IMG/VR virus record: IMGVR_UViG_3300044454_000272
Coordinates: 1-61,448 of that record
DNA: 61,448 bases
Direction: 5' to 3' (one strand)
Source of the DNA: a virus
Taxonomy: Duplodnaviria > Caudoviricetes
Within the stretch, counting starts at the first letter, position 1. Every line of letters begins with the position of its first letter. The notes beneath the pieces are model-generated. The model searched no databases. It was not told where the DNA came from and worked only from the letters and a program-made list of their open reading frames with translations. The position numbers and the translations under genes are program-made. Shown piece after piece: positions 1 through 44,162 of this stretch.

Positions 1-1041
1 CTTCCGATCTATACGTCCCTTGTCCTTGCTACCGCGGCGGCACGCTTTCCGCCACCATTTCAACCCGCCGCACAGCATGCAGCGCCACTGGTTGACGTCG
101 TACTCGCGCCAGTCGTGCTTACCGGCGCGGTGGTGCTCTGCTTCACGCGCTGTTTTGTCGTGGCAGAAGTGGCCCCGTACGTCGTGCTCGCGCCGCCATA
201 CGCCGCCGGTGCCGTACGTCTTGGCAAACAGCGGCTTCGGGTCAAGGTGCAGCCGGATGACAGTGTGCTTCGTCAGCACACTCGGCTTGTTGTGGATCAT
301 AGCGCGGTGCACGCCGACTTCGTCTTGGATCGTTACTTCGCGCGTGCGGTTCAGGAACAGCAGCAGGGCGAGGATGTTGCGCAGGTCGCCCGCCGAACCT
401 AGCATCAGGTTCTCCATTTTGTTGTTCGCTTTTTCCCTGCCCCACAGCCATTCGAACGAGTGATTCGCGCGCAGTGCGTGGCTCAGCTTGGGTCCGCCTG
501 TGCGCTGCTGGTCGGACTCCACAACAGTATGCCACAGCCCGCCCCAGTACCGGTGATCCAAGTTGATAGGGCGTGTTTGCAACTCCTCGCACAGTGCGTG
601 CTCCTCCTCGAGCGTAAACGGCTGGTTGAGGCGGTACACGAAGGGGCTAATCATCGGCTTCATGTTGCTGGCCCTGCTCCCGCGCACGAGCACGTACACG
701 CGTGGACCGTCGACAAAGAAACCGAGGTCTTCATCTGCCGAGCCGTCGCGCGAAGTGGCCTGCACTGCCAAGCCTTCAATGACTTGTACGATGGAGAACT
801 CAATGTACATCGACGGGTACGGCGGAATAGCGAACTGTTGGTCGTGCGCGATTGCTAGTGGGTGAGCCCGCTGCATCTCCCCCGCATACCGGGACGCCGC
901 CGAGTCCAGCACGAACTTGGGCGCGTCGCGCAGCCGCTCACGGATAACAAGCTGCCGGCGTTTTGCCAACTGCTCGGTATCCATGAGCTTCGACGCCAAA
1001 AACTCGTCGACGACAAGCGGACGGCGCTTGATCGTGCTCAC
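1..1041 (-). CDS. Hypothetical phage early protein, >347 aa, runs off left edge (absent from ORF track)
   Basis: Hand translation: GTG at 1041 overlaps the TGA of 1038..1331; open to position 1 (MSTIKRRPLVDEF...REHDVRGHFCH...CMLCGGLKWWRKACRRGSKDKGRIDRK). Confidence 0.75.
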   Translation of the reverse strand, partial: MSTIKRRPLVVDEFLASKLMDTEQLAKRRQLVIRERLRDAPKFVLDSAASRYAGEMQRAHPLAIAHDQQFAIPPYPSMYIEFSIVQVIEGLAVQATSRDGSADEDLGFFVDGPRVYVLVRGSRASNMKPMISPFVYRLNQPFTLEEEHALCEELQTRPINLDHRYWGGLWHTVVESDQQRTGGPKLSHALRANHSFEWLWGREKANNKMENLMLGSAGDLRNILALLLFLNRTREVTIQDEVGVHRAMIHNKPSVLTKHTVIRLHLDPKPLFAKTYGTGGVWRREHDVRGHFCHDKTAREAEHHRAGKHDWREYDVNQWRCMLCGGLKWWRKACRRGSKDKGRIDRK

Positions 1042-1331
1042 GCCGCCCTCGCAACGCGCGCCACAACCCGCAAGCTCTCCACGACATCGCTGGAGTACAG
1101 GTGTGGGTACACCTCAACCGGCAGCAGCTTCTTCGCCGCTGTCGTGTCGAGGCAGACGCGTGAAGCAACGACGAGCGTAGCGCGGAACAGCACGCCCTCC
1201 GCACTCTGCACGCCTTGCGTGAGCAGTTCTTCCTTCACACGATCCGCCAACGCCTTTTCACGTTTGGCGAGTGCTGCTATTTGCGCTTTGACAATGCCCA
1301 GCTGGTCGATTGCTGAAAACTTTGTAGCCAT
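1038..1331 (-). CDS. Hypothetical early protein, 97 aa
   Basis: ATG with AGGAG RBS directly after repeat element E1. Confidence 0.75.
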   Translation of the reverse strand: MATKFSAIDQLGIVKAQIAALAKREKALADRVKEELLTQGVQSAEGVLFRATLVVASRVCLDTTAAKKLLPVEVYPHLYSSDVVESLRVVARVARAA

Positions 1332-1349
1332 AGCAGAACTCCTATAAAC

Positions 1350-1403
1350 GGGTGCAACGTTGCACCAGTGAGCGCCCCGGAGGACGCTCAGTGCTGCGCG
1401 CTG
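1350..1403 (-). repeat. Intergenic structured element E1
   Basis: ggtgcaacgttgcacc-agtgagcg..cgctca-gtgctgcgcgctg. Confidence 0.85.
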
Positions 1404-1406
1404 CTT

Positions 1407-1646
1407 TTACTGCTGCTGCTTCTCCGCGTACTTCTGGAACTCGTCGTCCATGCAGGCACGCTCGCGATTGATTACGTCGATGTCAGCTTGCGACAACTCG
1501 ATGCGGTATGACTCGCGGTCCTTGCTGTATACCACGACCGAGATGTGCGGGCGGTTGCCATCGTACACGTACCCACACGACTCCACGCGCGCGGCGGTAA
1601 CCCGGCGCATCACGAGCCCGCCTACTTTGTGGGTGAAGATGTTCAC
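1407..1646 (-). CDS. Hypothetical early protein, 79 aa
   Basis: GTG start overlapping upstream stop; fills the gap before E1. Confidence 0.65.
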   Translation of the reverse strand: MNIFTHKVGGLVMRRVTAARVESCGYVYDGNRPHISVVVYSKDRESYRIELSQADIDVINRERACMDDEFQKYAEKQQQ

Positions 1647-2143
1647 GGCACCACCTTCTGCTTCCGGTAGTCCTTATACATCTCCGAGTCGCCGCTCAAC
1701 ACCAGCTTCTCGGTCCACAGCGGACGAACGCTCCACAGGAAGGAGCGCCACCGCTCGTTAGTCCACGAGTGCATGCTGCGATCGCTGACGTCGGCAACAA
1801 TCAACCCCTCGCCGAAGTCCATGCCGGGAAGCATTACCGCGTGCGGCCCGGTAAACTTCTCCTCGAGCGTGAAGTTGACCGGAGCCGCGCTGTCGTACCG
1901 CAGCATGTCAACGGGGAACGAGCCGACTCCCGCTACGGTAGCGTAGTGGATGTACTTGAACGACTTGCCTACCGGGTGCGGCGACACCTGATCCACACGG
2001 ATCTCCTCCAACGTGCCGGGGAAACCGGGCACGCGGCGGACCATGATGGTATTGGTCGGCGTCGAGTAGCTCATCGTTTGCGCGATGTGCGAGTACCCGT
2101 CTTTCTGGACGTACACGAGCAGATACGGCTTCAGCTTCTGCAT
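1643..2143 (-). CDS. Hypothetical early protein (FPVDMLRYD motif), 166 aa
   Basis: RBS AAAGGAAAGG after E2. Confidence 0.75.
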   Translation of the reverse strand: MQKLKPYLLVYVQKDGYSHIAQTMSYSTPTNTIMVRRVPGFPGTLEEIRVDQVSPHPVGKSFKYIHYATVAGVGSFPVDMLRYDSAAPVNFTLEEKFTGPHAVMLPGMDFGEGLIVADVSDRSMHSWTNERWRSFLWSVRPLWTEKLVLSGDSEMYKDYRKQKVVP

Positions 2144-2160
2144 TGCCTTTCCTTTGGTTG

Positions 2161-2216
2161 TCAGTGCAACAGTGCACCAGTGAGCACACTCGAGAGCGTG
2201 CTCATGTGCTGCACGT
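2161..2216 (-). repeat. Intergenic structured element E2
   Basis: tcagtgcaacagtgcaccagtgagcacactcgagagcgtgctcatgtgctgc; 52 nt identical to E4. Confidence 0.9.
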
Positions 2217-2220
2217 GCAT

Positions 2221-2302
2221 CGCCAGCGAGTTGGTGATCTACGGCGCTGGTGGCTGGCAGCGCCAGCGAGTTGGTGATCTACGGCGCTGGTGGCTGGCAG
2301 CG
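2221..2302. repeat. Perfect 40-bp tandem duplication
   Basis: cgccagcgagttggtgatctacggcgctggtggctggcag x2. Confidence 0.95.
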
Positions 2303-2494
2303 TTACGGACTGGATGCGGGCTCGCGCACCGTCGACTCCGGGTACTCGGCCAGCATCGTCCTGGCTTGCTGCACAGCCATGAGCATGCGGTTGAACGAGT
2401 ACGTGCCCAGCGATACTTGCTGCTCTTTCAGCCAGCGCTGTCCCTCGATGCTGGCTAGTATTTCTAAAGCATTTGGGTCGCAGATATTTACCAT
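2303..2494 (-). CDS. Hypothetical early protein, 63 aa
   Basis: Start reassigned to ATG 2494 (MVNICDP) with AAGGAGGG RBS after E3. Confidence 0.65.
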   Translation of the reverse strand: MVNICDPNALEILASIEGQRWLKEQQVSLGTYSFNRMLMAVQQARTMLAEYPESTVREPASSP

Positions 2495-2506
2495 GCTTCC
2501 CTCCTT

Positions 2507-2563
2507 AGTGCAACAGTGCACCAGTGAGCGCTCCCGTGTGGAAGCGCTCATGTGCTGCGCTGT
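2507..2563 (-). repeat. Intergenic structured element E3
   Basis: agtgcaacagtgcaccagtgagcgct..agcgctcatgtgctgcgctg. Confidence 0.9.
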
Positions 2564-3021
2564 TACCAAGTGCTGTGTGCGTTCCACGCCGTGCGGCCTT
2601 CGTTGAGGCGGTCGCGCACTTGCATCAGGATGTGACCGAGGTTGTTGCGTCCGTAGCCGCCGCAGACGCCCCAGAACCGGTCATTCCACGTATTGCCTTC
2701 CACGAGGAAGTGTTCGCCTGTGGCGAGCAGTTTCTCCGCTAACACACCGTGGCGTAGAAACTTTTGCTCCACGAGTGTGTGCATTACGGTTACCTTGATC
2801 TGCTCCCAGTCCTCACGCAGCTTCACGCGCTGTCCCAACTGCTTGGCCAGACCGGGCGAGTCGGCGAGGCGGATCTGCTTCTGCTGCAATACGCCGCGCG
2901 TCTTCGCTGCTTGGTACGCGTGCTCGACAGTCGGGTAGTTCAACCCGTCCATCGTGATGACACACGCCCAGAAGTTGGAGAGCCAGCGGTTGTCCGGACA
3001 AAAATCGAAGTCGTCGATCAT
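2563..3021 (-). CDS. NADAR (YbiA-like) family protein
   Basis: LSNFW, YPTVEHAYQAAK, AKQLG, KF..H..LAEKLLATG, EGNTWNDRFWG, GRNNLGHILMQVR; start MIDDF at 3021 with GGAGG. Confidence 0.92.
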   Translation of the reverse strand: MIDDFDFCPDNRWLSNFWACVITMDGLNYPTVEHAYQAAKTRGVLQQKQIRLADSPGLAKQLGQRVKLREDWEQIKVTVMHTLVEQKFLRHGVLAEKLLATGEHFLVEGNTWNDRFWGVCGGYGRNNLGHILMQVRDRLNEGRTAWNAHSTW

Positions 3022-3022
3022 G

Positions 3023-3397
3023 TCAGTGCCTCCGCCGGGTTGCGCGGAAGGACTCGAGCGCCGCGGCGATGTTCTTGTCCAGCGAGAAGCAGGACGGCGC
3101 ACGGCTCAGGAACACGAGTCGCGGGCTAACGTCGTCCATCATGCTGTTGCCGTGCTGCGGCGTGCACGCGATTTCGTTGGATGCGACCGGGCGCGACGTG
3201 CCCTCGATGACGCGCTTCTGCACGAGCATCTCGATGAAGCCGCCATCGAAACCGACGACCATGCCTTCAAGATACTCCGAAGGAATGTGCGAGCCGAAGT
3301 CGTAGGAGCGGATCCGGTCGTACAGCCGCAGCTTCACAGGCTTGGTCTCCGGTACGAATTTCGGCACTGCGGGTGGTTGCTTGCGTTTCGTTGCCAT
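3023..3397 (-). CDS. Hypothetical early protein, 124 aa
   Basis: MATKRK start with GGGAG RBS after E4. Confidence 0.7.
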   Translation of the reverse strand: MATKRKQPPAVPKFVPETKPVKLRLYDRIRSYDFGSHIPSEYLEGMVVGFDGGFIEMLVQKRVIEGTSRPVASNEIACTPQHGNSMMDDVSPRLVFLSRAPSCFSLDKNIAAALESFRATRRRH

Positions 3398-3416
3398 TTG
3401 CTTCTCCCGTTTTGAT

Positions 3417-3474
3417 TCAGTGCAACAGTGCACCAGTGAGCACACTCGAGAGCGTGCTCATGTGCTGCGCTGTT
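3417..3474 (-). repeat. Intergenic structured element E4
   Basis: Same consensus; shares 52 nt with E2 and 45 nt with E7. Confidence 0.9.
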
Positions 3475-4385
3475 TATGCGGCTTCCTGCTCCGCTTCAGC
3501 AGCGGCGGGCTCCGGGTGAACGAAGTCCGCTGCCTTCTGCGCCAGTGCGGCAGCCTTGAAGATTGCCGTGTTGTCCTCCTTGAGCACCTTGATCCAGTGC
3601 CCGAGGTACTCGGCGTGGCGAAGCTGCCCGTCAACGCCGTGCGCTGCACACAGGAACGCGGAGCCCAACTCGGCGATCAACTCCTCGAACGCGTATTCCG
3701 GGCTGGCGAAAAACGTGCCGAGCTTGCGGTCGCAGCGGGAGGGCGCTGACGTCCAGTGCGTCAGTTCGTGGAACGCGGTGCTGTAGTACGCGCCGAGGTC
3801 GACGAACGACTTCTTCCGCGGCAGCATAATCAAGTCGCCCGCGGGCATGTAGAACGCCCGGTCGCCGCCGTGCTTGATCGTTGCCCCGGTTGCTGCAATC
3901 GTTGCCGCTGCGTCGGGGAACGTGTCGTCTTCAACTTCTTCCTGCTCGTCCGTGAGCTGACGCTTGCAGGGATCCTTCTCCCAGTCAGCTTGGGCGATGT
4001 TGAACACGCTGAAGTACCGCAGCAGCGGTACGACGCGCGTTGCACCCGGCTCAGCGCTTTCGCGCTTGTCTTCGACTTCCAGCTTGCCGAAGTAGACAAC
4101 TTCCGTTGCGCGCTCGCCCTTGCGGACTTGGCCGCCGCGCTCCTTGATTTGCTTGTACGTGGCCCACGCGCCGGTCTCGTACCCCTTCATCATTGCCGTG
4201 CCCATAAGTATCAGCACGTTGATGCCGTGGTAATCACGATTGCTCGCGACGTTGTGCGGCATCATGCGCCCGCGCTGTCCCGGAGTAGCCGGGGACGCCG
4301 ACCACGGACGCACCCACGGCGCCACGCCTGCCTCGAGTTGCTTGAGGATGGACGCGGTGACTTTTTCGTAGATCTGCTTGCTCAT
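3474..4385 (-). CDS. ardC: ArdC-like antirestriction protein (DUF1738 ssDNA-binding domain + zincin metallopeptidase domain)
   Basis: IYEKVT..I...LE.GV.PWVRPW, YHGIN, WATYKQ, GGQVRKGE, FSVFNIAQ, FHELTHWT, YAFEELIAELGSAFL. Confidence 0.92.
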   Translation of the reverse strand: MSKQIYEKVTASILKQLEAGVAPWVRPWSASPATPGQRGRMMPHNVASNRDYHGINVLILMGTAMMKGYETGAWATYKQIKERGGQVRKGERATEVVYFGKLEVEDKRESAEPGATRVVPLLRYFSVFNIAQADWEKDPCKRQLTDEQEEVEDDTFPDAAATIAATGATIKHGGDRAFYMPAGDLIMLPRKKSFVDLGAYYSTAFHELTHWTSAPSRCDRKLGTFFASPEYAFEELIAELGSAFLCAAHGVDGQLRHAEYLGHWIKVLKEDNTAIFKAAALAQKAADFVHPEPAAAEAEQEAA

Positions 4386-4406
4386 GCTATGCCCCTTTCA
4401 GGGTTG

Positions 4407-4464
4407 TCAGTGCAACAGTGCACCAGTGAACGCTCCCGAGGAAGCGTTCATGTGCTGCGCTGTT
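4407..4464 (-). repeat. Intergenic structured element E5
   Basis: Stem tgaacgct..agcgttca (compensatory G-C to A-U). Confidence 0.9.
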
Positions 4465-4655
4465 TAGTCGGCGGTGACGTCGACCGTTTCGTTGGCGTGG
4501 GCTTCGATCACCGACACGAGCTTGGCTGCTAGCTCGTCGGCGTCGCTTTCCGTCACGCAATGCAGCACGATATGGCCGCCGCTGTCGCCGTACAGATGCA
4601 GGTTGTACACCTTGGACAAGTCGGTCAGCGTTTCGGTTTTCTTGATAACGTTCAT
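4464..4655 (-). CDS. Hypothetical early protein, 63 aa
   Basis: Exactly fills the E6-E5 interval; GGAAGG RBS. Confidence 0.7.
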   Translation of the reverse strand: MNVIKKTETLTDLSKVYNLHLYGDSGGHIVLHCVTESDADELAAKLVSVIEAHANETVDVTAD

Positions 4656-4669
4656 GGCTTTCCTTCCGT

Positions 4670-4728
4670 TCAGTGCAACAGTGCACCAGTAAGCGCTCCG
4701 CGCGGACGAAGCGCTTAGTGCTGCATGC
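4670..4728 (-). repeat. Intergenic structured element E6
   Basis: Stem taagcgct..agcgctta. Confidence 0.9.
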
Positions 4729-5019
4729 TCAGCGCGGCGCCAGCGGCTCCGCGTCGAGGTTCATCTCCTGCACAACAACAGCAGCCATCAATTGCATGCC
4801 CAGTGGCGACAAGTGCATGAAGCTCGCCGAGTAGACAACGTTCTGCACGTAGTCCGCAGCGTCGTCGCCGGTGATGCCGGAACAGTGGTCTTTATTTTCG
4901 TCGTTGCGCGCGTTCATTATTGTTTGCTCCGCCACCTTTACCGCGCGCTCGGACGTCGTATACACGCCCACGACACCGGTAGCTGGATCGTCTTGCAACA
5001 CCACAGCGAAAAGCTTCAT
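4729..5019 (-). CDS. Hypothetical early protein, 96 aa
   Basis: MKLFAVV start overlapping upstream stop; GGAGGAAGG RBS. Confidence 0.7.
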   Translation of the reverse strand: MKLFAVVLQDDPATGVVGVYTTSERAVKVAEQTIMNARNDENKDHCSGITGDDAADYVQNVVYSASFMHLSPLGMQLMAAVVVQEMNLDAEPLAPR

Positions 5020-5264
5020 ACCTTCCTCCACTTGCTAACGCGCAGGCAGTCCATATACGACGCGAGATTTTGCAGGCCACCAATGCGGCGCTCCAACTCC
5101 TCGGCACCGGCGCTGCTGCTGCCGTCGTAATCGTTAGCCACGGCGTCGATGTCAGCTTGCAGGATTTCAACGTCCCCCGCGTTGGGTGTTAGCTCCGCTG
5201 CTTCGAGCATTTCCACCGCTCGCGTGTACTCTGGCCATGCGATCCATTTTGTTTGCCAAGCCAT
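5016..5264 (-). CDS. Hypothetical early protein, 82 aa
   Basis: MAWQTK start after E7. Confidence 0.7.
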   Translation of the reverse strand: MAWQTKWIAWPEYTRAVEMLEAAELTPNAGDVEILQADIDAVANDYDGSSSAGAEELERRIGGLQNLASYMDCLRVSKWRKV

Positions 5265-5283
5265 TTGCTTCTCCCGTTTTGAT

Positions 5284-5339
5284 TCAGTGCAACAGTGCAC
5301 CAGTAAGCGCTCCGGAGAGCGCTTAGTGCTGCGTGCTGC
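5284..5339 (-). repeat. Intergenic structured element E7
   Basis: Stem taagcgctc-cgga-gagcgctta. Confidence 0.9.
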
Positions 5340-6049
5340 TAGCGCGGGATACGGACAATAATGCCGCCGGTCATGTACGGGTTGATGCGGTTGTTCGGCG
5401 TTGTCTTAACCGTCCAGCCGTTCAGTGCGGCGTGCGCCTTCAACTTCTCCATCAGCGCTTTGTCCGAACTGCGTGCCCGGTAACACTTCACCGTCCAGCA
5501 CTTGTCATAAGTGTTGGTGATGACCGGGTCCTTACCCGCGTCGGACATCAGGCGCCGCACGACTTGCGTGGGCCGGAGCGGTGCAGCGGGTTCCGCCGGC
5601 GGCGCGGGCGTGGCTGGCGCAGCGGCAACGGGCTGCGCGAGCAGCTTGCCCGCAGCTTCCAGTATTGTGTTGCGGTGGTCCTCGTGGTCGGCGTCGAGCA
5701 TTTGGTCGATGAACTCCTCGTCCGGGCCCGCGGCGCCTGGTTCTTCGAAGGACCACATCGCGAGGGCAGCTCTGACGTAGTTGGCTGCCAACGTTTCCAG
5801 CGCGTCCTGCTCCGTGATGTCGCCCCGGATCAACACGACCGGCGGCTCGAGCGCGCCCGCGTAAGCAGCAAAGTCATCGAACAGTTCTTGCGGCGTAAAC
5901 TGATAAACTTGGCTCCACAGATTGCGTCCGTCCTGATGCTCGAATTCGCTCACGTACTCGTCCACGAGCGCGGGATGCGTCGGGTAACGATGCTTGAGCA
6001 TGAGCACCATGACGGTCAAAACGGCGGGATGATTAAGTCCTAGCCTCAT
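5339..6049 (-). CDS. Hypothetical early protein, 236 aa, Pro/Ala linker between domains
   Basis: GGAG RBS after E8. Confidence 0.75.
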   Translation of the reverse strand: MRLGLNHPAVLTVMVLMLKHRYPTHPALVDEYVSEFEHQDGRNLWSQVYQFTPQELFDDFAAYAGALEPPVVLIRGDITEQDALETLAANYVRAALAMWSFEEPGAAGPDEEFIDQMLDADHEDHRNTILEAAGKLLAQPVAAAPATPAPPAEPAAPLRPTQVVRRLMSDAGKDPVITNTYDKCWTVKCYRARSSDKALMEKLKAHAALNGWTVKTTPNNRINPYMTGGIIVRIPR

Positions 6050-6065
6050 GTTTGTTCTCCGTAAC

Positions 6066-6125
6066 GGTGCAACGCTGCACCCTACTGCCGCAACGCCCAG
6101 GGCGCGCGGCAGTAGGCTGAACGCT
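6066..6125 (-). repeat. Divergent structured element E8
   Basis: ggtgcaacgctgcacc + stem cctactgccgc..gcggcagtagg. Confidence 0.75.
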
Positions 6126-6357
6126 ACGACAGTTTGATTTCGATCTCACCGCTGCGCACCCGTTGGAATTGCGTGTTGGCGGTGTGGCGGTTGATCTTAA
6201 GGCTGTCGGCGATCGACAGCACGTCGCCGCGCTTCAGCGACTTGTAACGCTGCGCGACGGCGCGGATCGTGTCACAGGGACCGTACTCGCGGTACGTCTT
6301 CGCGGCAAACGCCTTGGCGCTGCTAACGGTCTTGGAGGCGGAAGTGTGCGTCTTCAT
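6124..6357 (-). CDS. Small basic protein with 'IN..T..TQ' helical (HTH-like) domain
   Basis: TIRAVAQRYKSLKRGDVLSIADSLKINRHTANTQFQRVR; AAAGGA RBS. Confidence 0.7.
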   Translation of the reverse strand: MKTHTSASKTVSSAKAFAAKTYREYGPCDTIRAVAQRYKSLKRGDVLSIADSLKINRHTANTQFQRVRSGEIEIKLS

Positions 6358-6387
6358 GGTGGTTTCCTTTCAGTGAAGTTACGTTAT

Positions 6388-6444
6388 GGTGCGAGAGTGC
6401 GCACCCAACAACGCTCCCGAAGAAGCGTTGTTAGCTAACACTCT
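6388..6444 (-). repeat. Divergent structured element E9
   Basis: ggtgcg-agagtg-cgcacc + aacaacgct..agcgttgtt, cUUCGg loop on minus strand. Confidence 0.75.
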
Positions 6445-6507
6445 ACGGGCAACGTACCCGTGCCCGTCTGTTCGGTCCAACACGTACCGGTAAAATTTGC
6501 TGATACG

Positions 6508-6849
6508 TCATTGCTCCCAACGCTCGAGCGCAACGTCGTCCGCCTGCCCGTACTGGATATAGGCGTCGGATCCGTACGCGGGCCGCGCCGGTTGCCAGTC
6601 ACCGAAGCGCACCGGCAACCATCCGCGACTCGCGCGGACGTTCAGCGCGTCCGCAAGGCGCTCGGCGTGCAGCTTGTTGTCGCACGCTAGCGTGCAGCGG
6701 TCGCCCTGCTCGTTCTCGGCAACAACGTACCACGCTTCGCCGAAAACGTCGCCGCGCGGGTTGCTGATGTCCGCCATCTCCGGGTTCGTCCCGACGACAA
6801 CGAGATCCGACGCAGCGAAGAACGTGGTTGTAGAAGCTTGAAAGCTCAT
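6508..6849 (-). CDS. Hypothetical early protein, 113 aa
   Basis: MSFQAS start with AAGGAG; NPEMAD..NPRG and RPAYGSDAY motifs. Confidence 0.75.
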   Translation of the reverse strand: MSFQASTTTFFAASDLVVVGTNPEMADISNPRGDVFGEAWYVVAENEQGDRCTLACDNKLHAERLADALNVRASRGWLPVRFGDWQPARPAYGSDAYIQYGQADDVALERWEQ

Positions 6850-6865
6850 GCTCGCTCCTTGTAAC

Positions 6866-6923
6866 GGGTGCGGGAGTGCACCGCAATGCGCTCCGCCGAA
6901 GCGAAGCGCATGCCGCTGCAATC
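6866..6923 (-). repeat. Divergent structured element E10
   Basis: ggtgcgggagtgcacc + atgcgct..agcgcat, cUUCGg loop on minus strand. Confidence 0.75.
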
Positions 6924-7731
6924 ACGTGCTGCTGTGCGCGATTCCGTACTGCGTGCTAGCAGTGGAGCGGTTAATGTTCACCGCTGCTGCAACTTCGATG
7001 ATGTCATCCCGCGTGAACGTCGGAAACTTATGCACTGTACTGCGCACTGCTTCGCAAACGCCGTGCTCTTCACGCTGCTGCTCGCAATACTTCACCGCGG
7101 CCTTCTTCTGTGCCTCGGTCGCCGTACTGGCAACCTTCGGTGCACGCGGCGCACGGGGCTTGGGCTGCTTGGGCGCGGCGGGCGTGCTGTCGGACTGCTC
7201 GCCGGCGGGTTTGGGCGCCGTGCCGCCCTTCTTCGCACGCGGCTTGCGCGCTCCTGCGCCCGCCGGGACGAGCGCAGACGTAGCTTGCTGCTCCTTCCAG
7301 CGCGGCAACCGTTGCGCCAACTCGAGCGGGATCATAGTGTCGGTCAGGAAGCATTGTTCTTGCGTGCCGTCCTTGCTGCCCTTCTTGGCGCGCAGCCACA
7401 CACCGTTCAGCGCAACGACTTCCCAGCGGTCGTCGACGTCGGCGAAGTAGCAAACCGTGTCGCCGACTTTGACTTCGTGCATGAGCTTACGTGCCAACGC
7501 GGGCGTCGGCGGTTCAGCTTGCTGCTTTTCGTGCGCGATCACTTGCGCATCCTTCGGCGCTTCCGGCTTCGTTGCTGCCGGCGGCGGTTCAACGGGTGCA
7601 GCGGGCTTCGGCGCAGGCGCTTCCACCGGCTTCTTCGGTGCTGCCTTTTTCTTCGGTGCCGCGGGTGCTGCCTTTTCCTTCTTCGGCGGCGGCCGGAATT
7701 TCGCTTGCTTTGCCGTTTGCTTCTTCGCCAT
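6922..7731 (-). CDS. Lys/Ala/Pro-rich (histone H1-like) protein with C-terminal 'IN..T..TQ' domain
   Basis: MAKKQT start with GGAG; PKKKAAPKK repeats; C-term RDDIIEVAAAVNINRSTASTQY. Confidence 0.8.
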   Translation of the reverse strand: MAKKQTAKQAKFRPPPKKEKAAPAAPKKKAAPKKPVEAPAPKPAAPVEPPPAATKPEAPKDAQVIAHEKQQAEPPTPALARKLMHEVKVGDTVCYFADVDDRWEVVALNGVWLRAKKGSKDGTQEQCFLTDTMIPLELAQRLPRWKEQQATSALVPAGAGARKPRAKKGGTAPKPAGEQSDSTPAAPKQPKPRAPRAPKVASTATEAQKKAAVKYCEQQREEHGVCEAVRSTVHKFPTFTRDDIIEVAAAVNINRSTASTQYGIAHSST

Positions 7732-7752
7732 TGTTACTCCTGTCATGGTGTG

Positions 7753-7808
7753 TCAGTGCAACAGTGCACCAGTGAGCGCTCCGTGAAGCGCTCATGTGCT
7801 GCGCTGTT
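7753..7808 (-). repeat. Intergenic structured element E11
   Basis: Consensus copy, tgagcgct..agcgctca. Confidence 0.9.
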
Positions 7809-7991
7809 TTACAAGCGTACTGCGCTCTTCAGCAAGCGCCAATCAGTGGAGATGCGAACATTCCATTGTGACTCGCCGCACGTTACGAACGCGAACTTGA
7901 GCCCACGCTCAATGAGGTAGTTCTTGACGTCGGCCCATTCGCAGCACTCGACAGCCAGCGTCTGGTTCACGAACACCTTGTAAAAGTTCAT
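7809..7991 (-). CDS. Hypothetical early protein, 60 aa
   Basis: MNFYKV start, AGGAG RBS, ATGA overlap. Confidence 0.6.
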   Translation of the reverse strand: MNFYKVFVNQTLAVECCEWADVKNYLIERGLKFAFVTCGESQWNVRISTDWRLLKSAVRL

Positions 7992-8203
7992 TGCGGGCTC
8001 CTGCGGCAGTGCGCGTACGAACCGACGACAGTGGACAGCGCGTAACCGCCGCGCGGTATCTCGTCCACAGCGTCGAGGCAGTCGGCGAGCCCGCTTTGCA
8101 TGACGTCGGGCTCGCCGGTCCGGGAACGATCGAGGTTGCATGAAGCGATTGCAGCACGTTGATAGTACGGCGCGACGCGGGAGAGTTCAGGGCGTTGGTG
8201 CAT
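7988..8203 (-). CDS. Hypothetical early protein, 71 aa
   Basis: MHQRPE start with AAGGAG after E12. Confidence 0.6.
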   Translation of the reverse strand: MHQRPELSRVAPYYQRAAIASCNLDRSRTGEPDVMQSGLADCLDAVDEIPRGGYALSTVVGSYAHCRRSPQ

Positions 8204-8222
8204 TTGTTTCTCCTTACTGTGG

Positions 8223-8311
8223 CAGTGCAACAGTGCACTAGCCAACGCTCTCACAAACCCGTATAGGTTGCAGTCCATGTGGACCCGGAGAGCGTTGGGT
8301 GCTGCGCTGTT
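8223..8311 (-). repeat. Structured element E12 with enlarged loop
   Basis: cagtgcaacagtgcac + stem ccaacgctctc..(~35 nt)..gagagcgttgg + gtgctgcgctg. Confidence 0.85.
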
Positions 8312-8512
8312 TTACTTCGTGTGGTCAGTAATCGGAACGTGGAAACGTTCGCTCCACTGCTCAGCCAGCACTTCAGCTGCGCGGTGGGAGTCGACGTCGT
8401 GTCGTTGCAGCCGGACGAACCCGGCTGCGTCGGATACATACACCGAGTAACGCAAACGTCCACCCGGCTCGCTCATGTTCTTCACTTCCACCTTGGTGAT
8501 CGACGCAGGCAT
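8312..8512 (-). CDS. Hypothetical early protein, 66 aa
   Basis: GGAG RBS; ends at E12. Confidence 0.65.
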   Translation of the reverse strand: MPASITKVEVKNMSEPGGRLRYSVYVSDAAGFVRLQRHDVDSHRAAEVLAEQWSERFHVPITDHTK

Positions 8513-8514
8513 TT

Positions 8515-8685
8515 TTAACTCCGGTTGTCGTCAATAACAAGGTACACAGCGTTTGGCAGCTCTTCATTTGGACCGACGACATCAACAACGGGTCCGATGT
8601 CTTCATAGTCTTCAGCAAACATGCTAATGACGGGCATGCTGCTCGGTAGCGTTTGCAGCTTGGCAATCAGTTCAGCAACAGTCAT
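8515..8685 (-). CDS. Small 'MTVxEL' family phage protein, 56 aa (absent from ORF track)
   Basis: MTVAELIAKLQTLPSSMPVISMFAEDYED..., AAGGAG RBS; first gene after leader. Confidence 0.7.
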   Translation of the reverse strand: MTVAELIAKLQTLPSSMPVISMFAEDYEDIGPVVDVVGPNEELPNAVYLVIDDNRS

Positions 8686-8702
8686 TGCTCTGCTCCTTGG
8701 TA

Positions 8703-8764
8703 GGTGCGTGAGTGCACCGGGCTGACGGGTATGTAACTACTATACGCGCCAGCCCGCTGCACTC
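8703..8764 (-). repeat. Divergent structured element E13
   Basis: ggtgc-gtgagt-gcacc alternative hairpin; long stem gagtgca/cgggctg..cagcccg/tgcactc with G-G mismatch on minus strand. Confidence 0.7.
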
Positions 8765-9583
8765 GCAGCGGTTATCAATTTTTGGTTCGGAGCATAAGCC
8801 CCGACTCCCGCTCGCACTTGCCACATACGCTTGCAACTTCGTAACGACGCTCCACAGGGAGTCCGGCATCGCTGCCGCTACTTTGCCGATGAACTGGCTA
8901 TTGCTTGTGGTACTGCGCACGCTACCGCTGTTGGTTTATCTCGAACGGGGTTAGGTGTTTCACGCCACGTGAAGGGCGTTGGCCAGTTGCTGATCTGGCC
9001 CGTGTCCCTGCTTACCCGGAGCGATGACGCTGCTTATGTGCGCGAACGCGCACGCCGGGGTCTGCGGAGAGGCAGTAGGACTGACGACGCAATACGACAA
9101 GCGTGGGATAGTGTGCGGATGGGCTCCGGTGCCTTACGTTCGCCACGTGTTTACCACACGGACTTAATACTGCGCACGAACTGGGGCACGCCGAAGCGGT
9201 ACAGCTTACAAGAGTGATGCTGGAGACATCGAGCAGCGCGTAGCGGTGAACTGCTACGCGCCGAGGACGCGTTGAAGCTTGCGCGGCGTGGATGATCCTT
9301 TGGCGTGGAGAACGCGCGTTGAGCGTTGCTTGTGCCGGGTCGACGATGCTGCTGTCGGGGCAGGCTGACTGTGCGTTGTTTGCTGCACTGTCCGCTGGTG
9401 AGCGCAATTCCCGCTTGGCACTTCCGGGCGACTACGTGAACTTGCCCTGCTGTGGGGATCGCATTCTGCCGATCGAGGTTAGTCGCTTCCGGTGCTGCTT
9501 TTTACTTCCCGGACTCCGGAGGGTGAACCCTGACGTTCTGGGCTGGTACTGCCCCTTTCCCGTCCCCTACCGTTGCTGTGCTT
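8765..9583 (-). ncRNA. Candidate long structured leader / non-coding RNA
   Basis: No ORF with credible RBS or protein-like composition; several hairpins; 9-bp long-range inverted repeat 8858-8866/9509-9517. Confidence 0.4.
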
Positions 9584-9589
9584 ACGGCT

Positions 9590-9618
9590 AATGTAGCCCA
9601 TGCAGGGGTACATGGCAA
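9590..9618 (-). promoter_or_regulatory. Sigma70-type early promoter
   Basis: Minus strand TTGCCA-17 nt-TACATT pointing into the early operon. Confidence 0.75.
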
Positions 9619-9648
9619 GCGCTTTCCGGGGCGATTTTCACCCTAAAA

Positions 9649-9661
9649 AATCAATCACTTA
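9649..9661 (+). promoter_or_regulatory. IHF consensus site upstream of early promoter
   Basis: AATCAAtcacTTA matches WATCAANNNNTTR, preceded by an A-tract. Confidence 0.6.
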
Positions 9662-9669
9662 CAGGCGAT

Positions 9670-10026
9670 TTAGGGGGCTACCCAGCGGCAGCGGGACGAA
9701 ACCCGAGCGATTTCCACTGTGCAGCGCGCGACAAGCGCTGTCAGCTGTAGCAGTGGCATAACACCCGGCGAGTCCATGTGGAGTATGTCCGCGGTATAGC
9801 AGCCGAAGGCGGTGCGGAATACGTTGTCAGTTTCCTGCTCGCTGTACAGCAGCCGCACGGCGCGCAGGACGGCACGACGCAACGGCTGCGGCGGAGCAGT
9901 GAAGGCAGCGACTACGATCACGGGCGCGAAATCTGTAGCCTGCGACGGCGAGCCATGCACGGTATAGAGCCAGCGTCCGCGCGCGGGGCTCTTAATGTAG
10001 TACCAGACTTGCGTGCTCGTATCCAC
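9670..10026 (-). CDS. Hypothetical protein, 118 aa
   Basis: ORF track; GTG start, weak RBS. Confidence 0.35.
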   Translation of the reverse strand: MDTSTQVWYYIKSPARGRWLYTVHGSPSQATDFAPVIVVAAFTAPPQPLRRAVLRAVRLLYSEQETDNVFRTAFGCYTADILHMDSPGVMPLLQLTALVARCTVEIARVSSRCRWVAP

Positions 10027-10097
10027 GATGCCAGCAACGCTAACATGGTGCGCTGCGCTGTTTCAAGGCCAAGGTTATGTGGAAGTTAAACAAATTC

Positions 10098-10133
10098 GAC
10101 AGTGGTGACGCGGGTTTTTGCGTCACCACTGTC
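10098..10133. repeat. Perfect 14-bp inverted repeat in divergent intergenic region
   Basis: gacagtggtgacgc-gggttttt-gcgtcaccactgtc. Confidence 0.85.
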
Positions 10134-10485
10134 AGCACGGCGAAGCCGAAAACGTGTTGTGTTCGCTATACGCGCGCGCGTACTAACTAAGGGCTTGTAT
10201 TGCTCCTTACAGTCGCAATACTGCGCCCATGTATAGGTCAATGCTTCGTAAAGCTTACGCTTTACTCGCTTTATTGACCTATAGATAAATGGAAAATCTT
10301 GCGCGCGCGCAGGCGCGTGTACGCGCGCGAGGGCTGCGTCGCGAGGGCTGCGTCGTCTACGCTGGGTTGATTAAGCAGCACACATCTTGCAGCGAGTTCT
10401 TGTGCAGCAAATTTTTTTGCGCTACTGTGCACACCCCCTCGCAGCAAACACGTTTCGAACAAACGATCACCACAACGGGAGCGAC

Positions 10486-11079
10486 ATGGCGATCACTAAG
10501 CGGCAAATCATGGAAGCAATACCTGGCCTTCCGCCACACGACATCGCGGACATCATTGAATGGTGCCACAGCTTCGGCCCGCGCAGCACAAAGCCTGGCG
10601 ACAATGCCGACACAGAGCAGGCGTACAACGAATTAGCTGCCTGCTTCAGTGATTACTTCCGCAAGTCATACCCGACTACCTTCCTCCGCTTCGCCCACTC
10701 CCGTCCTCGTCAGTACAAAGCGCTCATCGCCGCTGCCACGAACGCCATGCAATGCGTGAACGCGTGGTGGCCGAACGAAAGCCGTATAGTTAGGTTAGGG
10801 CTGCTGCGTTACGTGTGCCGGGTTGCGTTCGACGTAAGCACGCGGCGCACTGCACGCCTCACGTGGGCTCGTGTAATCGGGGCCCTGTTGGAAACAGAAG
10901 CGACAATCAACGACGGATTTCCGGGCTGGATCAAGGCGGGCTTGTTTCAGGAGCGCGCCTTAGCCCGCGTCAAAGGGACGGGAGAGCAAAAGCATGTTCG
11001 GGACCAATCCACTGCGGAGACAAGACCTGCAAGCCAACACGCTGCGGGTCGAAAAGGTTTTCTTCACCGTACAAGGTGA
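10486..11079 (+). CDS. Hypothetical protein, first gene of replication operon
   Basis: MAITKRQ start with GGGAG RBS. Confidence 0.7.
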   Translation: MAITKRQIMEAIPGLPPHDIADIIEWCHSFGPRSTKPGDNADTEQAYNELAACFSDYFRKSYPTTFLRFAHSRPRQYKALIAAATNAMQCVNAWWPNESRIVRLGLLRYVCRVAFDVSTRRTARLTWARVIGALLETEATINDGFPGWIKAGLFQERALARVKGTGEQKHVRDQSTAETRPASQHAAGRKGFLHRTR

Positions 11080-11746
11080 AGGACCACTAGCTGGCCTTCC
11101 TGCTGTCTTCATCCGGCTTGCCGGGTGCAACCTTGCGTGCAAGTTCTGTGACACCGAGTTCGAGAGCGGCATCGACAACGTGCGCACGGTCGACGAGGTG
11201 GTGGAAGAGGTGTTCCGCGTGCGCGACCAGGATGGCGACGGCATTACTCGCGGTGCCCCGTTGGCCGTGCTAACCGGAGGCGAGCCGCTGCGGCAAAATG
11301 TGGAGCCGTTGTGTCGTGCACTTGTGGGGTTCGGTTTCCATGTGCAGATCGAAACGGCAGGCACGCTGTGGGTGGCAGGTTTAGCAGAGTTGGTGAGCAC
11401 AGTCAGTACACTACGCCCTAGTGTGACATTAGTGGTTAGTCCCAAGACCGGGCACGTGGTAACTGCAATCGCCATCCTTGCTGCGGCGTGGAAATACGTG
11501 ATTGATGCGCGTGATTTGTACAGTGAGGTGGACGGCCTGCCGGATGTTAGCCCGCAAGCATCTGCATCGCACCAACCGCTGGCTCGTCCTCCCGCTGACG
11601 TAGCTGCCACGAATATCTACCTTAGTCCGTGCGACGCGTACGACGAACGCTTCAACGAAGCAAACCGTCGCGAAGTGTTCCGTCGAGCGCTCTACTACGG
11701 TTATCGAGTCAGTATCCAGCAGCACAAAGTTCTCGGCGTCGAATAG
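10994..11746 (+). CDS. queE: 7-carboxy-7-deazaguanine synthase (radical SAM)
   Basis: FFTVQGEG, FIRLAGCNLACKFCDT, LTGGEP, IETAG, VSPK, SIQQHKVLG. Confidence 0.93.
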   Translation: MFGTNPLRRQDLQANTLRVEKVFFTVQGEGPLAGLPAVFIRLAGCNLACKFCDTEFESGIDNVRTVDEVVEEVFRVRDQDGDGITRGAPLAVLTGGEPLRQNVEPLCRALVGFGFHVQIETAGTLWVAGLAELVSTVSTLRPSVTLVVSPKTGHVVTAIAILAAAWKYVIDARDLYSEVDGLPDVSPQASASHQPLARPPADVAATNIYLSPCDAYDERFNEANRREVFRRALYYGYRVSIQQHKVLGVE

Positions 11747-19616: not shown

Positions 19617-19802
19617 AGGTAAAAACCGTGAAGGGGGCCATTATGAGCAGCAGGCTAAAGCGCGATACAGTAATTCGTAAAGGGCAGGAAGTGTGGACCA
19701 GAACCCGGGGCCACCGACAAGTGCAGGTGGATCATTTAACAATGTTTGTCTCCTCGAGCGACGTGCCTAAATCCGCTCCTCACTGTTAGCAGAGTCGGAC
19801 GA

Positions 19803-20840
19803 ATGAACATTCACCTAGCAGTGGACAGCGGAGCGTTCAGTTTGTACCGGAAGCGTGTAGGCGCGGAGAAGGTATCCGGCTCGAGTATCAGCGCGAAGAT
19901 TGCAGGGCAGCGGCGCAAGAACAACGACTTCTACGACACCGATGAGTTGACCCAGTACCTTATGGATTATGCGGCGTATGTGAAGCAGTACGCGCCGCTG
20001 CTCGACTTCTACGTCACCGTCGATGCCATGTTCGACGCCAAGCGCTCGTGGGAGTTGTTGCTACGGCTGGAGAAGCTAGGGCTCAAGCCCATGCCAGTGT
20101 TCCATTGCGGCGGTGACGAGGACTTTGTGTGGTTGAAGAAGTACATGGACCGTTACGAGTACATCGGTGCGGGTGGTATCGCGCGCAGCATGGGGCTCGC
20201 TCGGCGTATGGCGTTCCTGCGCCGCATGTTCGCGTACATGCGTGGTAAAGACGGACACATGAAGTGGAAAACGCACGGCTTCGGTGTAACGTCCGGCGAA
20301 GTGATGGCTGCGTTCCCGTGGTACTCCTGCGACTCGTTTAGTGCGCTGACAATGGCGTTGAATGGGCGCATGCAGTTGCCAATGGTTGTATTCAAGGGCA
20401 AGAAAATTGTTGGCTTCCGCTTCGACAAGCTGGGATCCAACATCAGTGTAAGCGCGCGGCGGCAGCACGATCAGGGGTCTTACTCCAAACTGGGCCCAAG
20501 CGCTCGTGCTGCCGTCGACGCGTACCTCGAGTCTATCGGCACCAGCTTTGAAGCAGTGTGCAACGACGACAAGGAGCGTATCTTCGCGTCTTACTACTTC
20601 TACGCCAAAATGGCGATCGAGTTGTCGGCAGTGCGACCGGAACATGACCCGCTGCGGCTGTACTTCGCCGGCACAATCGACAAGTGGATCTACCCGTTGC
20701 TGCCCCGGCTGGAGAAGGTAGGCATCAAGGACTTTCGGGTGCTGGGCAGCTTCTTCACCGACCGCAAGTTCATCGATCTGTTTCCCAACGGCAAGGTACC
20801 GCGCGTCAAGGTGTCGTCGCCAGCTTTGGAGGCAGCATGA
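19803..20840 (+). CDS. TGT-fold DNA transglycosylase, DpdA-like
   Basis: VDSGAFS, PMPVFH, YIGAGG, THGFG, FPWYSCDS; co-occurs with folE/queD/queE. Confidence 0.72.
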   Translation: MNIHLAVDSGAFSLYRKRVGAEKVSGSSISAKIAGQRRKNNDFYDTDELTQYLMDYAAYVKQYAPLLDFYVTVDAMFDAKRSWELLLRLEKLGLKPMPVFHCGGDEDFVWLKKYMDRYEYIGAGGIARSMGLARRMAFLRRMFAYMRGKDGHMKWKTHGFGVTSGEVMAAFPWYSCDSFSALTMALNGRMQLPMVVFKGKKIVGFRFDKLGSNISVSARRQHDQGSYSKLGPSARAAVDAYLESIGTSFEAVCNDDKERIFASYYFYAKMAIELSAVRPEHDPLRLYFAGTIDKWIYPLLPRLEKVGIKDFRVLGSFFTDRKFIDLFPNGKVPRVKVSSPALEAA

Positions 20841-33944: not shown

Positions 33945-34382
33945 GTGGACAAAATAAAGGACACAGCAACACGGTATCACGACTTCAGTTGCGGTCACCG
34001 TGTCGTAGGGCACGAGGGGAAGTGTGCGCTGCTGCACGGGCATAACTATCGCATCCACTTCAAGTGCCGCGCGGAAAAGCTCGATAGTGTAGGGCGCGTT
34101 ATCGATTTTAGTGTCATCAAGCGGTTGGGTATTTGGTTGGAGGAGAATTGGGACCATAAGTTCTTGGCGTGGAATCAGGACCGGCCCTTGCGCTACTTGG
34201 TAGACGGCAGCGAGTTCGTTGACTCCATTGTGTGGGTACCGTTCAACCCCACGGCGGAAAATATTGGGCGGCACTTGCTGGTAGAGGTGGGGCCGAAGGT
34301 GCTGTGGGGCACCGGCGCCACGCTCGTCAAAGTAAAGGTGGAAGAGACGCGCAAGTGCAGCGCGACAGCCGCCCTCTATTAA
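33945..34382 (+). CDS. queD: 6-carboxy-5,6,7,8-tetrahydropterin synthase
   Basis: GHR...H.GKC..LHGHNY, VIDF, WDHKFL, NPTAEN, EET. Confidence 0.93.
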   Translation: MDKIKDTATRYHDFSCGHRVVGHEGKCALLHGHNYRIHFKCRAEKLDSVGRVIDFSVIKRLGIWLEENWDHKFLAWNQDRPLRYLVDGSEFVDSIVWVPFNPTAENIGRHLLVEVGPKVLWGTGATLVKVKVEETRKCSATAALY

Positions 34383-34387
34383 AAATT

Positions 34388-43973: not shown

Positions 43974-44162
43974 ATGCTGCGCATCACTGCACCGCACTTC
44001 GTTGCTGGCATCGAGCCAGGCAAGGTGTGTGCACCGATCATCCGTTACATGCTGCCGTGGAGTGAAAAGCGTATCCGCCAGTTCTGCGCAATGAAAGGCT
44101 GGCGTGTCAGCAACATTTCTTTTCTCGAGAGGAGACTAAAAAGTGGCAACTCGCACCATTAA
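43974..44162 (+). CDS. Small conserved-type phage protein
   Basis: I.APHFVAG, APIIRYM..W...I..FC..KGW. Confidence 0.65.
   Translation: MLRITAPHFVAGIEPGKVCAPIIRYMLPWSEKRIRQFCAMKGWRVSNISFLERRLKSGNSHH

Follow-up and report, generated by a model that had tools for sequence, protein, structure and literature searches.

What does a short structured element do when it is repeated thirteen times between the genes of a single phage operon, and does it act there as RNA or as DNA? This question is raised by the left end of the linear genome of an uncultured phage, IMG/VR virus record IMGVR_UViG_3300044454_000272, which was analysed over its whole length of 61,448 nt (the window) and is estimated by CheckV to be ~63% complete. 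The elements, termed E1 to E13, lie in a minus-strand operon at 1–10026, which comprises 20 genes in our own gene model, mostly ORFans, and runs off the left end of the record. The element is a well-supported RNA motif that is new and absent from Rfam, and we infer its function from the lines of evidence set out below.

The thirteen copies and their competing folds

An earlier, sequence-only reading of this DNA had described 13 intergenic copies of the element, and the covariance model, the pattern enrichment and the placement at gene junctions agree that these copies are real. The pattern GGTGCANNNNTGCAC, with at most one mismatch, occurs 27 times in the window compared with 2.69 expected, a count reached by none of 100 shuffles. 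Both-strand readings of 12 elements account for 24 of the 27 matches, the remaining three falling at one site at 34655/34656 and one at 43979; E9, whose loop is longer, has no match to the pattern. A covariance model, a check that the sequence-only reading had proposed, was trained on the eight most similar copies and searched, unfiltered, against both strands of the window. The training copies score 59–84 bits, and all five held-out copies were recovered on the minus strand, E12 at 32.9, E10 at 26.1, E9 at 23.5, E13 at 20.0 and E8 at 13.3 bits, the last as a partial match with an expectation value (E) of 0.23. The best match outside the elements in the whole window scores 13.8 bits (E 0.17), and nine matches of 23.5 bits and below are plus-strand echoes of the elements. 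With a second model, built from 11 copies, the held-out E13 scores 28.5 bits and E8 16.7 bits. The operon has 19 gene junctions, and each of the 13 that measure at least 68 nt holds one element (68–78 nt at nine of them), the six of 2 nt or less, where genes overlap or abut, holding none. The 5' edge of the element lies -7 to +1 nt from the upstream stop codon in 10 of 13 copies, with E2 (84 nt), E9 (65 nt) and E13 (903 nt) as the exceptions, and the small hairpin described below ends 12–30 nt from the next start codon, so that element and ribosome-binding site fill the whole gap. A possible degenerate fourteenth copy is seen on the plus strand at 34620–34673, at the end of the open reading frame (ORF) 34232–34684 and before the ribosome-binding site of the next gene; its core is one mismatch off the canonical small hairpin and its model score is just 9.6 bits (E 2.3).

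The mRNA consensus and the inner-stem variants listed in the sequence-only reading were both correct. In E11 (7755–7809, minus strand like all copies of the window; 82.2 bits), a canonical copy that serves as the numbering reference, the 5' side runs from the stop codon through AACAG, an unpaired C, GCA, an unpaired G, CA and an unpaired CA into the upper stem, and the 3' side returns through an unpaired C, UG, an unpaired G, UGC, an unpaired A and CUGUU to GCAC(U/C). The upper stem comprises 9–16 bp and is closed by a loop of 3–7 nt, except for the branched 40-nt insertion of E12. The complete long hairpin has 14–24 predicted pairs, interrupted by a 1x1 G-G mismatch, a 1x1 C-A mismatch and an asymmetric CA/C internal loop, and 14 of 15 copies have it as their minimum-energy fold. 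These 15 are the 13 of the window and two from L159, a 65.6-kb metagenome contig with a DnaB helicase 38% identical to that of the window, in which the two intergenic copies, both in mRNA sense, flank a DUF932 gene in the early operon. L159 copy 1 (4189–4245) scores 27.0 bits (E 1.6e-4) and copy 2 (3049–3106), which was recognised by reading, 13.8 bits (E 0.54). In 12 of the 13 copies of the window, and also in L159 copy 1, two G's face each other between an A-U pair and a C-G pair; in E12 both G's are inside a 4x4 loop, because one G became A, and L159 copy 2 has another register at this position.

The 3' strand G-GUGCA-CUGU can also form, with the UGCAC(U/C) that follows it, an alternative hairpin of 5–6 bp with the core GGUGC-loop-GCAC(C/U), and a 19-nt stretch is identical across seven copies. 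When the small-hairpin fold is forced it lies 0–9.3 kcal/mol above the minimum, and in the predicted structures the two folds are mutually exclusive, as had been claimed from the sequence. In the intact RNA the small hairpin has a predicted probability of ~0 in nine of 13 copies, compared with at least 0.49 in 10 of 13 isolated 3' fragments and at least 0.64 in eight of 10 copies once the 5' strand is blocked by the footprint of a terminating ribosome. The small hairpin is thus predicted to form only with the 5' strand removed or occupied.

Among the other copies, E2 (2163–2219, 72.7 bits), E3 (2507–2566, 79.2 bits), E4 (3419–3476, 83.4 bits) and E5 (4409–4468, 84.4 bits) are canonical. E2 has an upper stem identical to that of E4, the small hairpin of E3 abuts the Shine-Dalgarno sequence with 12 nt to the start codon, and E4 and E5 are positioned downstream and upstream, respectively, of an ArdC-like gene. 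E1 (1351–1412, 59.1 bits), between g17 and g18, can form the long hairpin and the small 3' hairpin GGUGCA-ACGU-UGCACC. The 3' half is canonical and the 5' strand variant in E6 (4672–4733, 64.9 bits), which has an upper stem of 12 bp, and in E7 (5286–5340, 71.6 bits), which has a cUCCGg loop. E12 (8224–8318) shows a canonical base, a branched apical-loop insertion of ~40 nt and CUAG in place of CUGG. The remaining four copies are divergent, and their folds retain both the G-G mismatch and the alternative 3' hairpin, as had been noted for E8, E9, and E13: E8 (6066–6122) has an unrelated 16-bp upper stem; E9 (6388–6446) has the lower stem AGAGUG/CACUCU and a small hairpin of 6 bp with a 6-nt loop; E10 (6867–6926) has the small-hairpin fold as its minimum-energy fold; and E13 (8703–8767), the first copy of the operon, has the lower stem GAGUGCA/UGCACUC. 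The cUUCGg loops described for E9 and E10 are present, and cUCCGg is found in E1 as well as E7. Between g15 and E2, at 2217–2302, there is a 40-nt tandem repeat (2.2 copies with 97% matches); its units can form hairpins, and each full unit carries the E. coli Chi octamer on the plus strand.

Covariation and the strand of action

For the long hairpin, 11 copies were aligned to the model and compared with 500 shuffles. In this alignment 91.4% of cells are paired compared with 78.2% in the shuffles, and changes on both sides occur at 10 of 19 pairs, neither value being reached in any of the 500. The upper stem is 100% paired with compensatory changes at seven of nine pairs, and its own 3' arm is the best partner for the 5' arm in 14 of 15 copies when partners are swapped; RNAalifold, run unaided, predicts 14 pairs, eight of them compensatory. 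The structure of the upper stem is clearly under selection. A further signal comes from the small-hairpin loop, which changes together with the far 5' strand. The loops of the divergent copies are CUGU, CUCA, CACUCU and GGAUUU, and the far 5' strand tracks them as AACAG, GAG, AGAGUG and GAGUCC(UCA), the last with three G-U pairs, giving the 5'-strand/loop pairs AACAG/CUGUU, GAG/CUC in E13, AGAGUG/CACUCU in E9 and GAGUCCUCA/UGGGGAUUU in L159 copy 1. A double-stranded DNA site cannot explain this covariation, and since the half-site spacing of the palindrome also varies by 2 nt (a loop of 4 or 6 nt), a purely double-stranded DNA site is disfavored on this count as well.

All 13 copies of the window and both copies of L159 are oriented in mRNA sense, the L159 operon being co-directional with its helicase gene and the window operon divergent from its own. 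Loops of the cUNCGg type occur in four of 13 copies (E1, E7, E9, and E10), and the minus-strand RNA is more stable than the plus-strand RNA in 11 of 13. The elements very probably act as RNA structures in the mRNA. Selection on the RNA in mRNA sense, as proposed earlier, is borne out by the upper-stem covariation, the UNCG loops and the orientation here and in L159. The related statement that the non-Watson-Crick positions are G-U pairs of the minus strand stands for 25 of 295 predicted pairs and fails at the C-A mismatch of E3, E4, E5, E11, and E12, which would be a G-U pair on the plus strand and does not fit a clean RNA picture.

Signals of known type were looked for at the elements. No sigma-70-like site occurs at any element in a scan of 1–11000, and by reading there is no -10-like hexamer in the leaders between small hairpin and Shine-Dalgarno sequence. 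The only terminator-like sites found on the minus strand are at 10134–10097 and 970–954, neither of them at an element, and a GC-rich hairpin directly followed by a U-run, the feature of an intrinsic (Rho-independent) terminator, is absent from all 13 elements. The sigma-54 consensus has GG and GC at -24/-12 at a fixed spacing, 11 positions apart; in the canonical elements the second G of the GG and the G of the GC are 10 positions apart, and E9 and L159 copy 1 lack the arrangement, and such a promoter was rejected on this spacing. CTGGTG resembles the E. coli Chi octamer, and a Chi array was rejected: the octamer occurs three times in the window compared with 3.05 expected, and CTGGTGC, found 19 times compared with 13.8 expected, is reached by 12 of 100 shuffles and is absent from the divergent copies. 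At gathering scores, Rfam gives no match anywhere in the window, and at E <=1 over 1–10500 only mir-33 and TrkB IRES appear, irrelevant eukaryotic families below threshold. Neither a sigma-70 or sigma-54 promoter nor an Rfam family explains the elements, and the impression of the sequence-only reading that it was no described RNA family agrees with the Rfam search.

Short oriented intergenic signals that act in transcription elongation or in the segment stability of polycistronic RNA are known in several other systems. Stoperators, from Cluster A mycobacteriophages, are asymmetric 13-bp repressor DNA sites with no covarying hairpin, and REP elements are chromosomal and found in many genomic contexts. 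Stoperators, REP and intercistronic hairpins and the plastid intercistronic expression element (PMC2230500) share this general layout, and the role proposed here, with the elements of the window. The PeSLs (promoter-early stem-loops) of T4-type phages are described in PMC2839356 and PMC4122927 as intergenic repeats of ~60–100 nt that flank ORFans in early, hyperplastic regions, contain a stable stem-loop, end at the Shine-Dalgarno sequence and start codon, and recombine with one another. The elements of the window likewise are repeated intergenic cassettes with a stable stem-loop that flank ORFans and end at the Shine-Dalgarno sequence and start codon, and the phage has a T4-like replication module (gp32-like, UvsX/RecA-like, clamp, clamp loader, and SbcCD). 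As described there, however, PeSLs are defined by a consensus sigma-70 promoter, which none of the 13 elements carries, and an assignment to PeSLs was ruled out for this reason. SAS/ESAS (start-associated sequences and extended SAS) of Cluster K mycobacteriophages, whose function is given as still unknown in passages of PMC3203893, were also rejected, the conserved 13-bp SAS and 17-bp arms being absent here. The ESAS arms are conserved 17-bp sequences according to the same passages, whereas in the window the arms of the main stem vary freely, with compensating changes, and conservation is confined to a second hairpin that overlaps it; the sequences are not similar, and the host phylum differs.

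One explanation, which we consider rather unlikely, divides the element between RNA and DNA: the hairpin would be a generic RNA stabilizer or attenuator, and the palindrome would be the site of a double-stranded DNA regulator, operator- or stoperator-like and serving early shut-off, or a promoter not recognized by sigma-70. It is consistent with a small palindrome that is mostly conserved rather than covarying, with the paralogous helical domains of the g5 C-terminus and g7 and their weak helix-turn-helix (HTH) leads, with the ~37% of the genome outside the record, and with the repeated intergenic promoter/operator cassettes known from phage early regions (PeSLs, in passages of PMC2839356). 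The half-site loop of 4 or 6 nt, together with the 6 bp and 6-nt loop of E9, is nevertheless awkward for a dimeric DNA binder, and the loop and 5' arm of the palindrome covary with a strand 40–80 nt upstream. As a promoter the palindrome has no sigma-70-like site and a GG-GC spacing one base short of the sigma-54 consensus, and in E3 a start site could not fit before the Shine-Dalgarno sequence, because only 12 nt separate palindrome and ATG. The protein families of the phage were scanned with Pfam or PHROGs in the 20 minus-strand genes (g1–g19 by Pfam, g0 by PHROGs only) and in ~40 of 69 plus-strand ORFs, and no RNase, RNA polymerase, sigma factor or RNA-binding family was found in them; the lack of a phage polymerase or sigma factor among the plus-strand ORFs scanned likewise speaks against a promoter of special type.

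Proposed intercistronic processing and its rivals

The explanation that we favor, tentatively and while holding it to be somewhat short of probable, is that the elements are signals between cistrons for the processing and stabilization of the mRNA, of the kind cut by RNase III in T7. The long imperfect hairpin would fold co-transcriptionally in a polycistronic early mRNA, and a host double-strand-specific endonuclease of the RNase III class would cut in or near its internal loops. The upstream cistron would keep the stable, covarying upper hairpin at its 3' end, blocking 3' exonucleases, and the freed 3' strand of the lower stem would refold with the downstream GCAC(C/U), so that the downstream cistron would begin with the small hairpin. 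This 5'-terminal hairpin would protect the downstream cistron from 5'-end-dependent decay and leave the Shine-Dalgarno sequence free. A ribosome terminating at the abutting stop codon would unzip the 5' strand in the same way as the cut. Cleavage, enzyme and stabilizing effect are each proposed here by analogy. The geometry, with 14–24 pairs and small internal loops, suits a substrate of a double-stranded RNA endonuclease, and the imperfect double-stranded hairpin with internal loops (as predicted) and the location between cistrons are both features of RNase III signals. According to passages of PMC5371410, T7, T3 and lambda RNAs each or together contain several targets of RNase III, and the same text cites work in which a 5'-terminal stem-loop stabilizes mRNA.

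The comparison with T7 early mRNA, already drawn in the sequence-only reading, is an apt one. The five early intergenic gaps of T7 were folded from the RefSeq record, used without annotation of the RNase III sites, at what we take to be the positions of R0.3, R0.5, R1, R1.1, and R1.3, and their hairpins form a similar paralogous family with a conserved base, an internal loop and a variable top. As in the window, the RNase III sites of T7 and T3 are intercistronic paralogous hairpins in a host-transcribed early operon with an anti-restriction gene. The T7 hairpins also resemble the elements in their conserved lower stem with internal loop below a variable top, in the stop codon in or next to the 5' strand, and in their end 20–35 nt ahead of the next start codon. 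The upstream T7 product reportedly keeps a 3' hairpin. In contrast to these likenesses there is no sequence similarity to T7, 13 sites are found in 7.4 kb here compared with five in 7 kb there, and the conserved G-G mismatch and refolding 3'-strand hairpin are present here, whereas the T7 folds are without a 5' hairpin; cleavage of the elements is, moreover, a prediction.

Several observations weigh against processing of the T7 type. RNase III needs little sequence, and the identity of 19 nt in seven copies and the core common to L159 are for this reason left unexplained; recent gene conversion or a sequence-specific factor could cause this identity. The T7 downstream products have no 5' hairpin in our own folds, and we know of no precedent for a refolded hairpin that caps the 5' end at an RNase III-type site. 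The isolated 3' fragments of E11 and E12 disfavor the small hairpin, with predicted probabilities of 0.15 and 0.06. Covariation in the lower stem is modest, with 83.6% of cells paired and three of 10 pairs compensatory, and on swapping partners the own strand is the best in just four of 15 copies, these four being the informative, divergent ones. The covariation anticipated by the sequence-only reading is strong in the upper stem and weak in the small 3' hairpin taken alone, which is 96.7% paired, has three of six pairs invariant and gives a covariation score reached by 27 of 500 shuffles. This last test used 14 copies and omitted E9, in which MAFFT had misaligned the two additional bases of the loop. 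Such changes as do occur in the small hairpin keep the pairing, C-G becoming G-C in L159 copy 1 and, by direct reading, A-U becoming G-C in E9, with an outer pair that is G-C, G-U or A-U. Finally, the shuffle tests are inflated, because the copies are paralogues and the alignment was fitted to the structure.

The same two folds may instead be read by a protein. An RNA operator, in which a phage or host protein binds the small hairpin or the G-G helix and the element works as a switch coupled to translation, not as a site of cleavage, is unlikely in our judgement, though it is a serious rival because a terminating ribosome would unzip the 5' strand likewise. The protein could be a translational repressor that shuts off the early genes, or an antitermination or loading factor, and the long hairpin would hide or present its site depending on the ribosome terminating at the upstream stop. 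Such an operator would account for sequence conservation beyond structure, as in the 19 identical nucleotides of seven copies, and for a core and A-U/G-G/C-G motif that are common to L159 copy 1 even though the helicases are only 38% identical. It is also consistent with the stop codon that abuts the 5' strand in 10 of 13 copies, with the ribosome-footprint block that lifts the small hairpin in eight of 10, and with the position of that hairpin 12–30 nt from each start codon. Against it, no RNA-binding protein was identified, only the ArdC-like and NADAR genes having a Pfam family among g1–g19, and the predicted Shine-Dalgarno accessibility shows no consistent change between the folds. The distance from hairpin to Shine-Dalgarno sequence, moreover, varies by reading from 2 to ~19 nt, and 13 sites exceed the needs of a signal for loading an antitermination complex.

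Self-cleavage, or cleavage by a dedicated phage endoribonuclease with a logic like that of Cas6/Csy4 in place of host RNase III, is highly improbable. A conserved base with non-canonical pairs, a variable apical stem that tolerates the 40-nt insertion of E12 and the intergenic location would suit a ribozyme, and, as no Rfam ribozyme family matches, it would be a new one. What is invariant across the 15 copies is, however, limited to the small-hairpin core and the A-U/G-G/C-G motif, and this conserved core is too small for a typical ribozyme because the 5' strand differs freely; for a dedicated endoribonuclease, the family scans gave no nuclease candidate. An improbable further reading takes the element as a bistable RNA punctuation mark, in which the long hairpin is the resting state and a terminating ribosome, or a cut by a dedicated factor or by the RNA itself in place of housekeeping RNase III, would flip it into the small hairpin, this hairpin or the G-G helix then being read by a specific factor. 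If this were true, each anti-defence gene would have its own setting of stability and translation, and the element would be the natural counterpart of the synthetic insulators based on Csy4 or ribozymes.

Hairpins repeated between genes are no rarity in the early regions of phages, and the novelty here is the overlapping refolding hairpin and conserved G-G helix that are added to a known punctuation strategy. If the processing explanation is correct, this would be the densest punctuation known in a phage operon, at 13 sites in 7.4 kb, and would follow a design rule by which one strand is shared by a processing hairpin and a protective 5' hairpin. The motif could then be used as a compact natural insulator in synthetic operons, its covariance model could mark early or anti-defence operons in uncultured phages, such as those with ArdC-like and NADAR genes here and DUF932 in L159, and the operon would provide a tractable system in which to study phage control over the stoichiometry and lifetime of anti-defence proteins. 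Whatever its function, the element is a well-supported RNA structure absent from Rfam.

Relatives, mosaic copies and the surrounding genes

Beyond the window, L159 was the sole exception among the cultured phages and ~300 fetched loci, in which no element was found. The GGUGC...GCAC core and the A-U/G-G/C-G motif are present in L159 copy 1, and copy 2, which retains the G-G motif and the two competing folds, has 11 bases in common with E1–E4 and E11 that run into the small hairpin. Another contig, L093, with a DnaB 35% identical to that of the window, contains three intergenic copies of an unrelated repeat on the minus strand (6216–6278, 7234–7296, and 7876–7938), with a layout like that of the element: first a covarying hairpin of variable sequence, then a short conserved one in competition with it for one strand, and after these a stretch rich in A and U and a Shine-Dalgarno sequence. 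Given the copies in L159 and L093, the design predates the window genome, as does part of the sequence. The known family of the element is still tiny. In L091, whose DnaB is the closest at 55% identity, no element was found in the whole record, which ends before any early operon, and none was found in L092 and L160. Positions 1–400 of L091 contain a dense array of short palindromes on one repeated core, unrelated in sequence to the element; candidate roles for this array are those of an origin, a packaging site or an operator array.

Searches with the sequences themselves gave no further copies. The covariance model R1 found nothing at E <=1 in 100 ArdC and DnaB loci, and in the other, pattern-derived loci only weak matches driven by the pattern itself. 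A megablast search with the operon had no match in cultured phages, a blastn search of cultured phages with one element gave just a 22-nt match that was taken as chance, and a protein search with the DUF932 gene of L159 returned no viral relatives. In viral contigs, a 17-mer matched two coding sequences, taken as chance; a gapped pattern gave 44 matches, all of them single; and a 14-base pattern gave at least 119 stretches, all single among the matches listed. A host REP element or prophage repeat was also rejected, the 17-mer having 17 single matches in the genomes of 17 unrelated bacterial species, again taken as chance; no contig among these bacterial loci had more than one match, and the covariance model found no full element in them.

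The copies of the window are related to one another piecewise. The leaders of E4 and E7, in front of unrelated genes, stay identical up to and including the ATG and the first two bases of the codon after it, and E3, E4, E5, E11, and E12 have a common 5' strand. The copies are mosaics, which points to recombination or gene conversion between elements. One could therefore take the element for a recombination linker or selfish repeat, cassettes by which ORFan modules are shuffled and whose hairpins are generic insulators. This is distinctly improbable as the explanation of the element, and is compatible with the other readings. The mosaic copies (the upper stem of E2/E4, the leader of E4/E7, and the 5' strand of E3/E4/E5/E11/E12) and the position of the elements beside ORFan and anti-defence genes in a variable early region agree with it, and shuffling mediated by PeSLs is documented in PMC2839356 and PMC4122927. 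A linker fails, however, to explain the compensatory changes, the G-G motif in divergent copies and in L159, and the placement of one element per junction.

Only two genes of the operon could be assigned to a family, an ArdC-like anti-restriction gene (3474–4385) and a gene with a NADAR domain (2563–3021). The operon looks like an early, anti-defence operon, a label and timing that are taken from this gene content, and it is presumably transcribed as a polycistronic RNA, the scan for promoter-like and terminator-like sites giving none at its elements; a look-up of RNA runs for 1–9600 listed none. Upstream of E13, between it and g0 (9670–10026), the minus strand at 8770–9670 has ~0.9 kb without codon-position periodicity in GC, the differences between positions being 0.04–0.16 compared with 0.2–0.45 in the genes checked. 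The stretch, whose ORFs have no family match, is a candidate for a long non-coding leader or an RNA gene. The lone sigma-70-like site of 1–11000, at 9618–9590, is at its upstream edge. Upstream of the first gene of the operon, a strong terminator-like hairpin of 15 pairs followed by a T-run is located at 10097–10134 on the minus strand, and a copy of the 5' half of the element alone at 10047–10063, also on the minus strand, lies just ahead of the start of g0. Hairpin and half copy at the head of the operon may together be an attenuator or antitermination arrangement. Among the divergent copies E8–E11 lie g5 (6922–7731, minus strand) and g7 (6124–6357, minus strand), which have a small helical domain in common: the C-terminus of the former is paralogous to the whole of the latter (41 residues aligned at 34% identity, E 1e-10). 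The N-terminal half of g5 is rich in Lys, Pro and Ala, and an Atlas structure look-up for g7 gave only weak helical or HTH-like leads.

The GC content of the window is 56–61%. From ~10.3 kb the plus strand carries a replication and recombination module that comprises a DnaB-like helicase, a second helicase, a primase and a family-A DNA polymerase, the last just 30–33% identical to those of its best cultured relatives. Further plus-strand genes encode a sliding-clamp-like protein, a clamp-loader-like ATPase, gp32-like and RecA/UvsX-like proteins, a PDDEXK nuclease, a Mre11-like phosphoesterase and an SbcC-like protein, and genes for terminase, portal and head morphogenesis are also found on this strand. 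At 10994–11746 and 19746–20840 the plus strand encodes a radical-SAM protein and a protein like queuine tRNA-ribosyltransferase (DpdA/TGT-like), which suggests 7-deazaguanine modification of the phage DNA.

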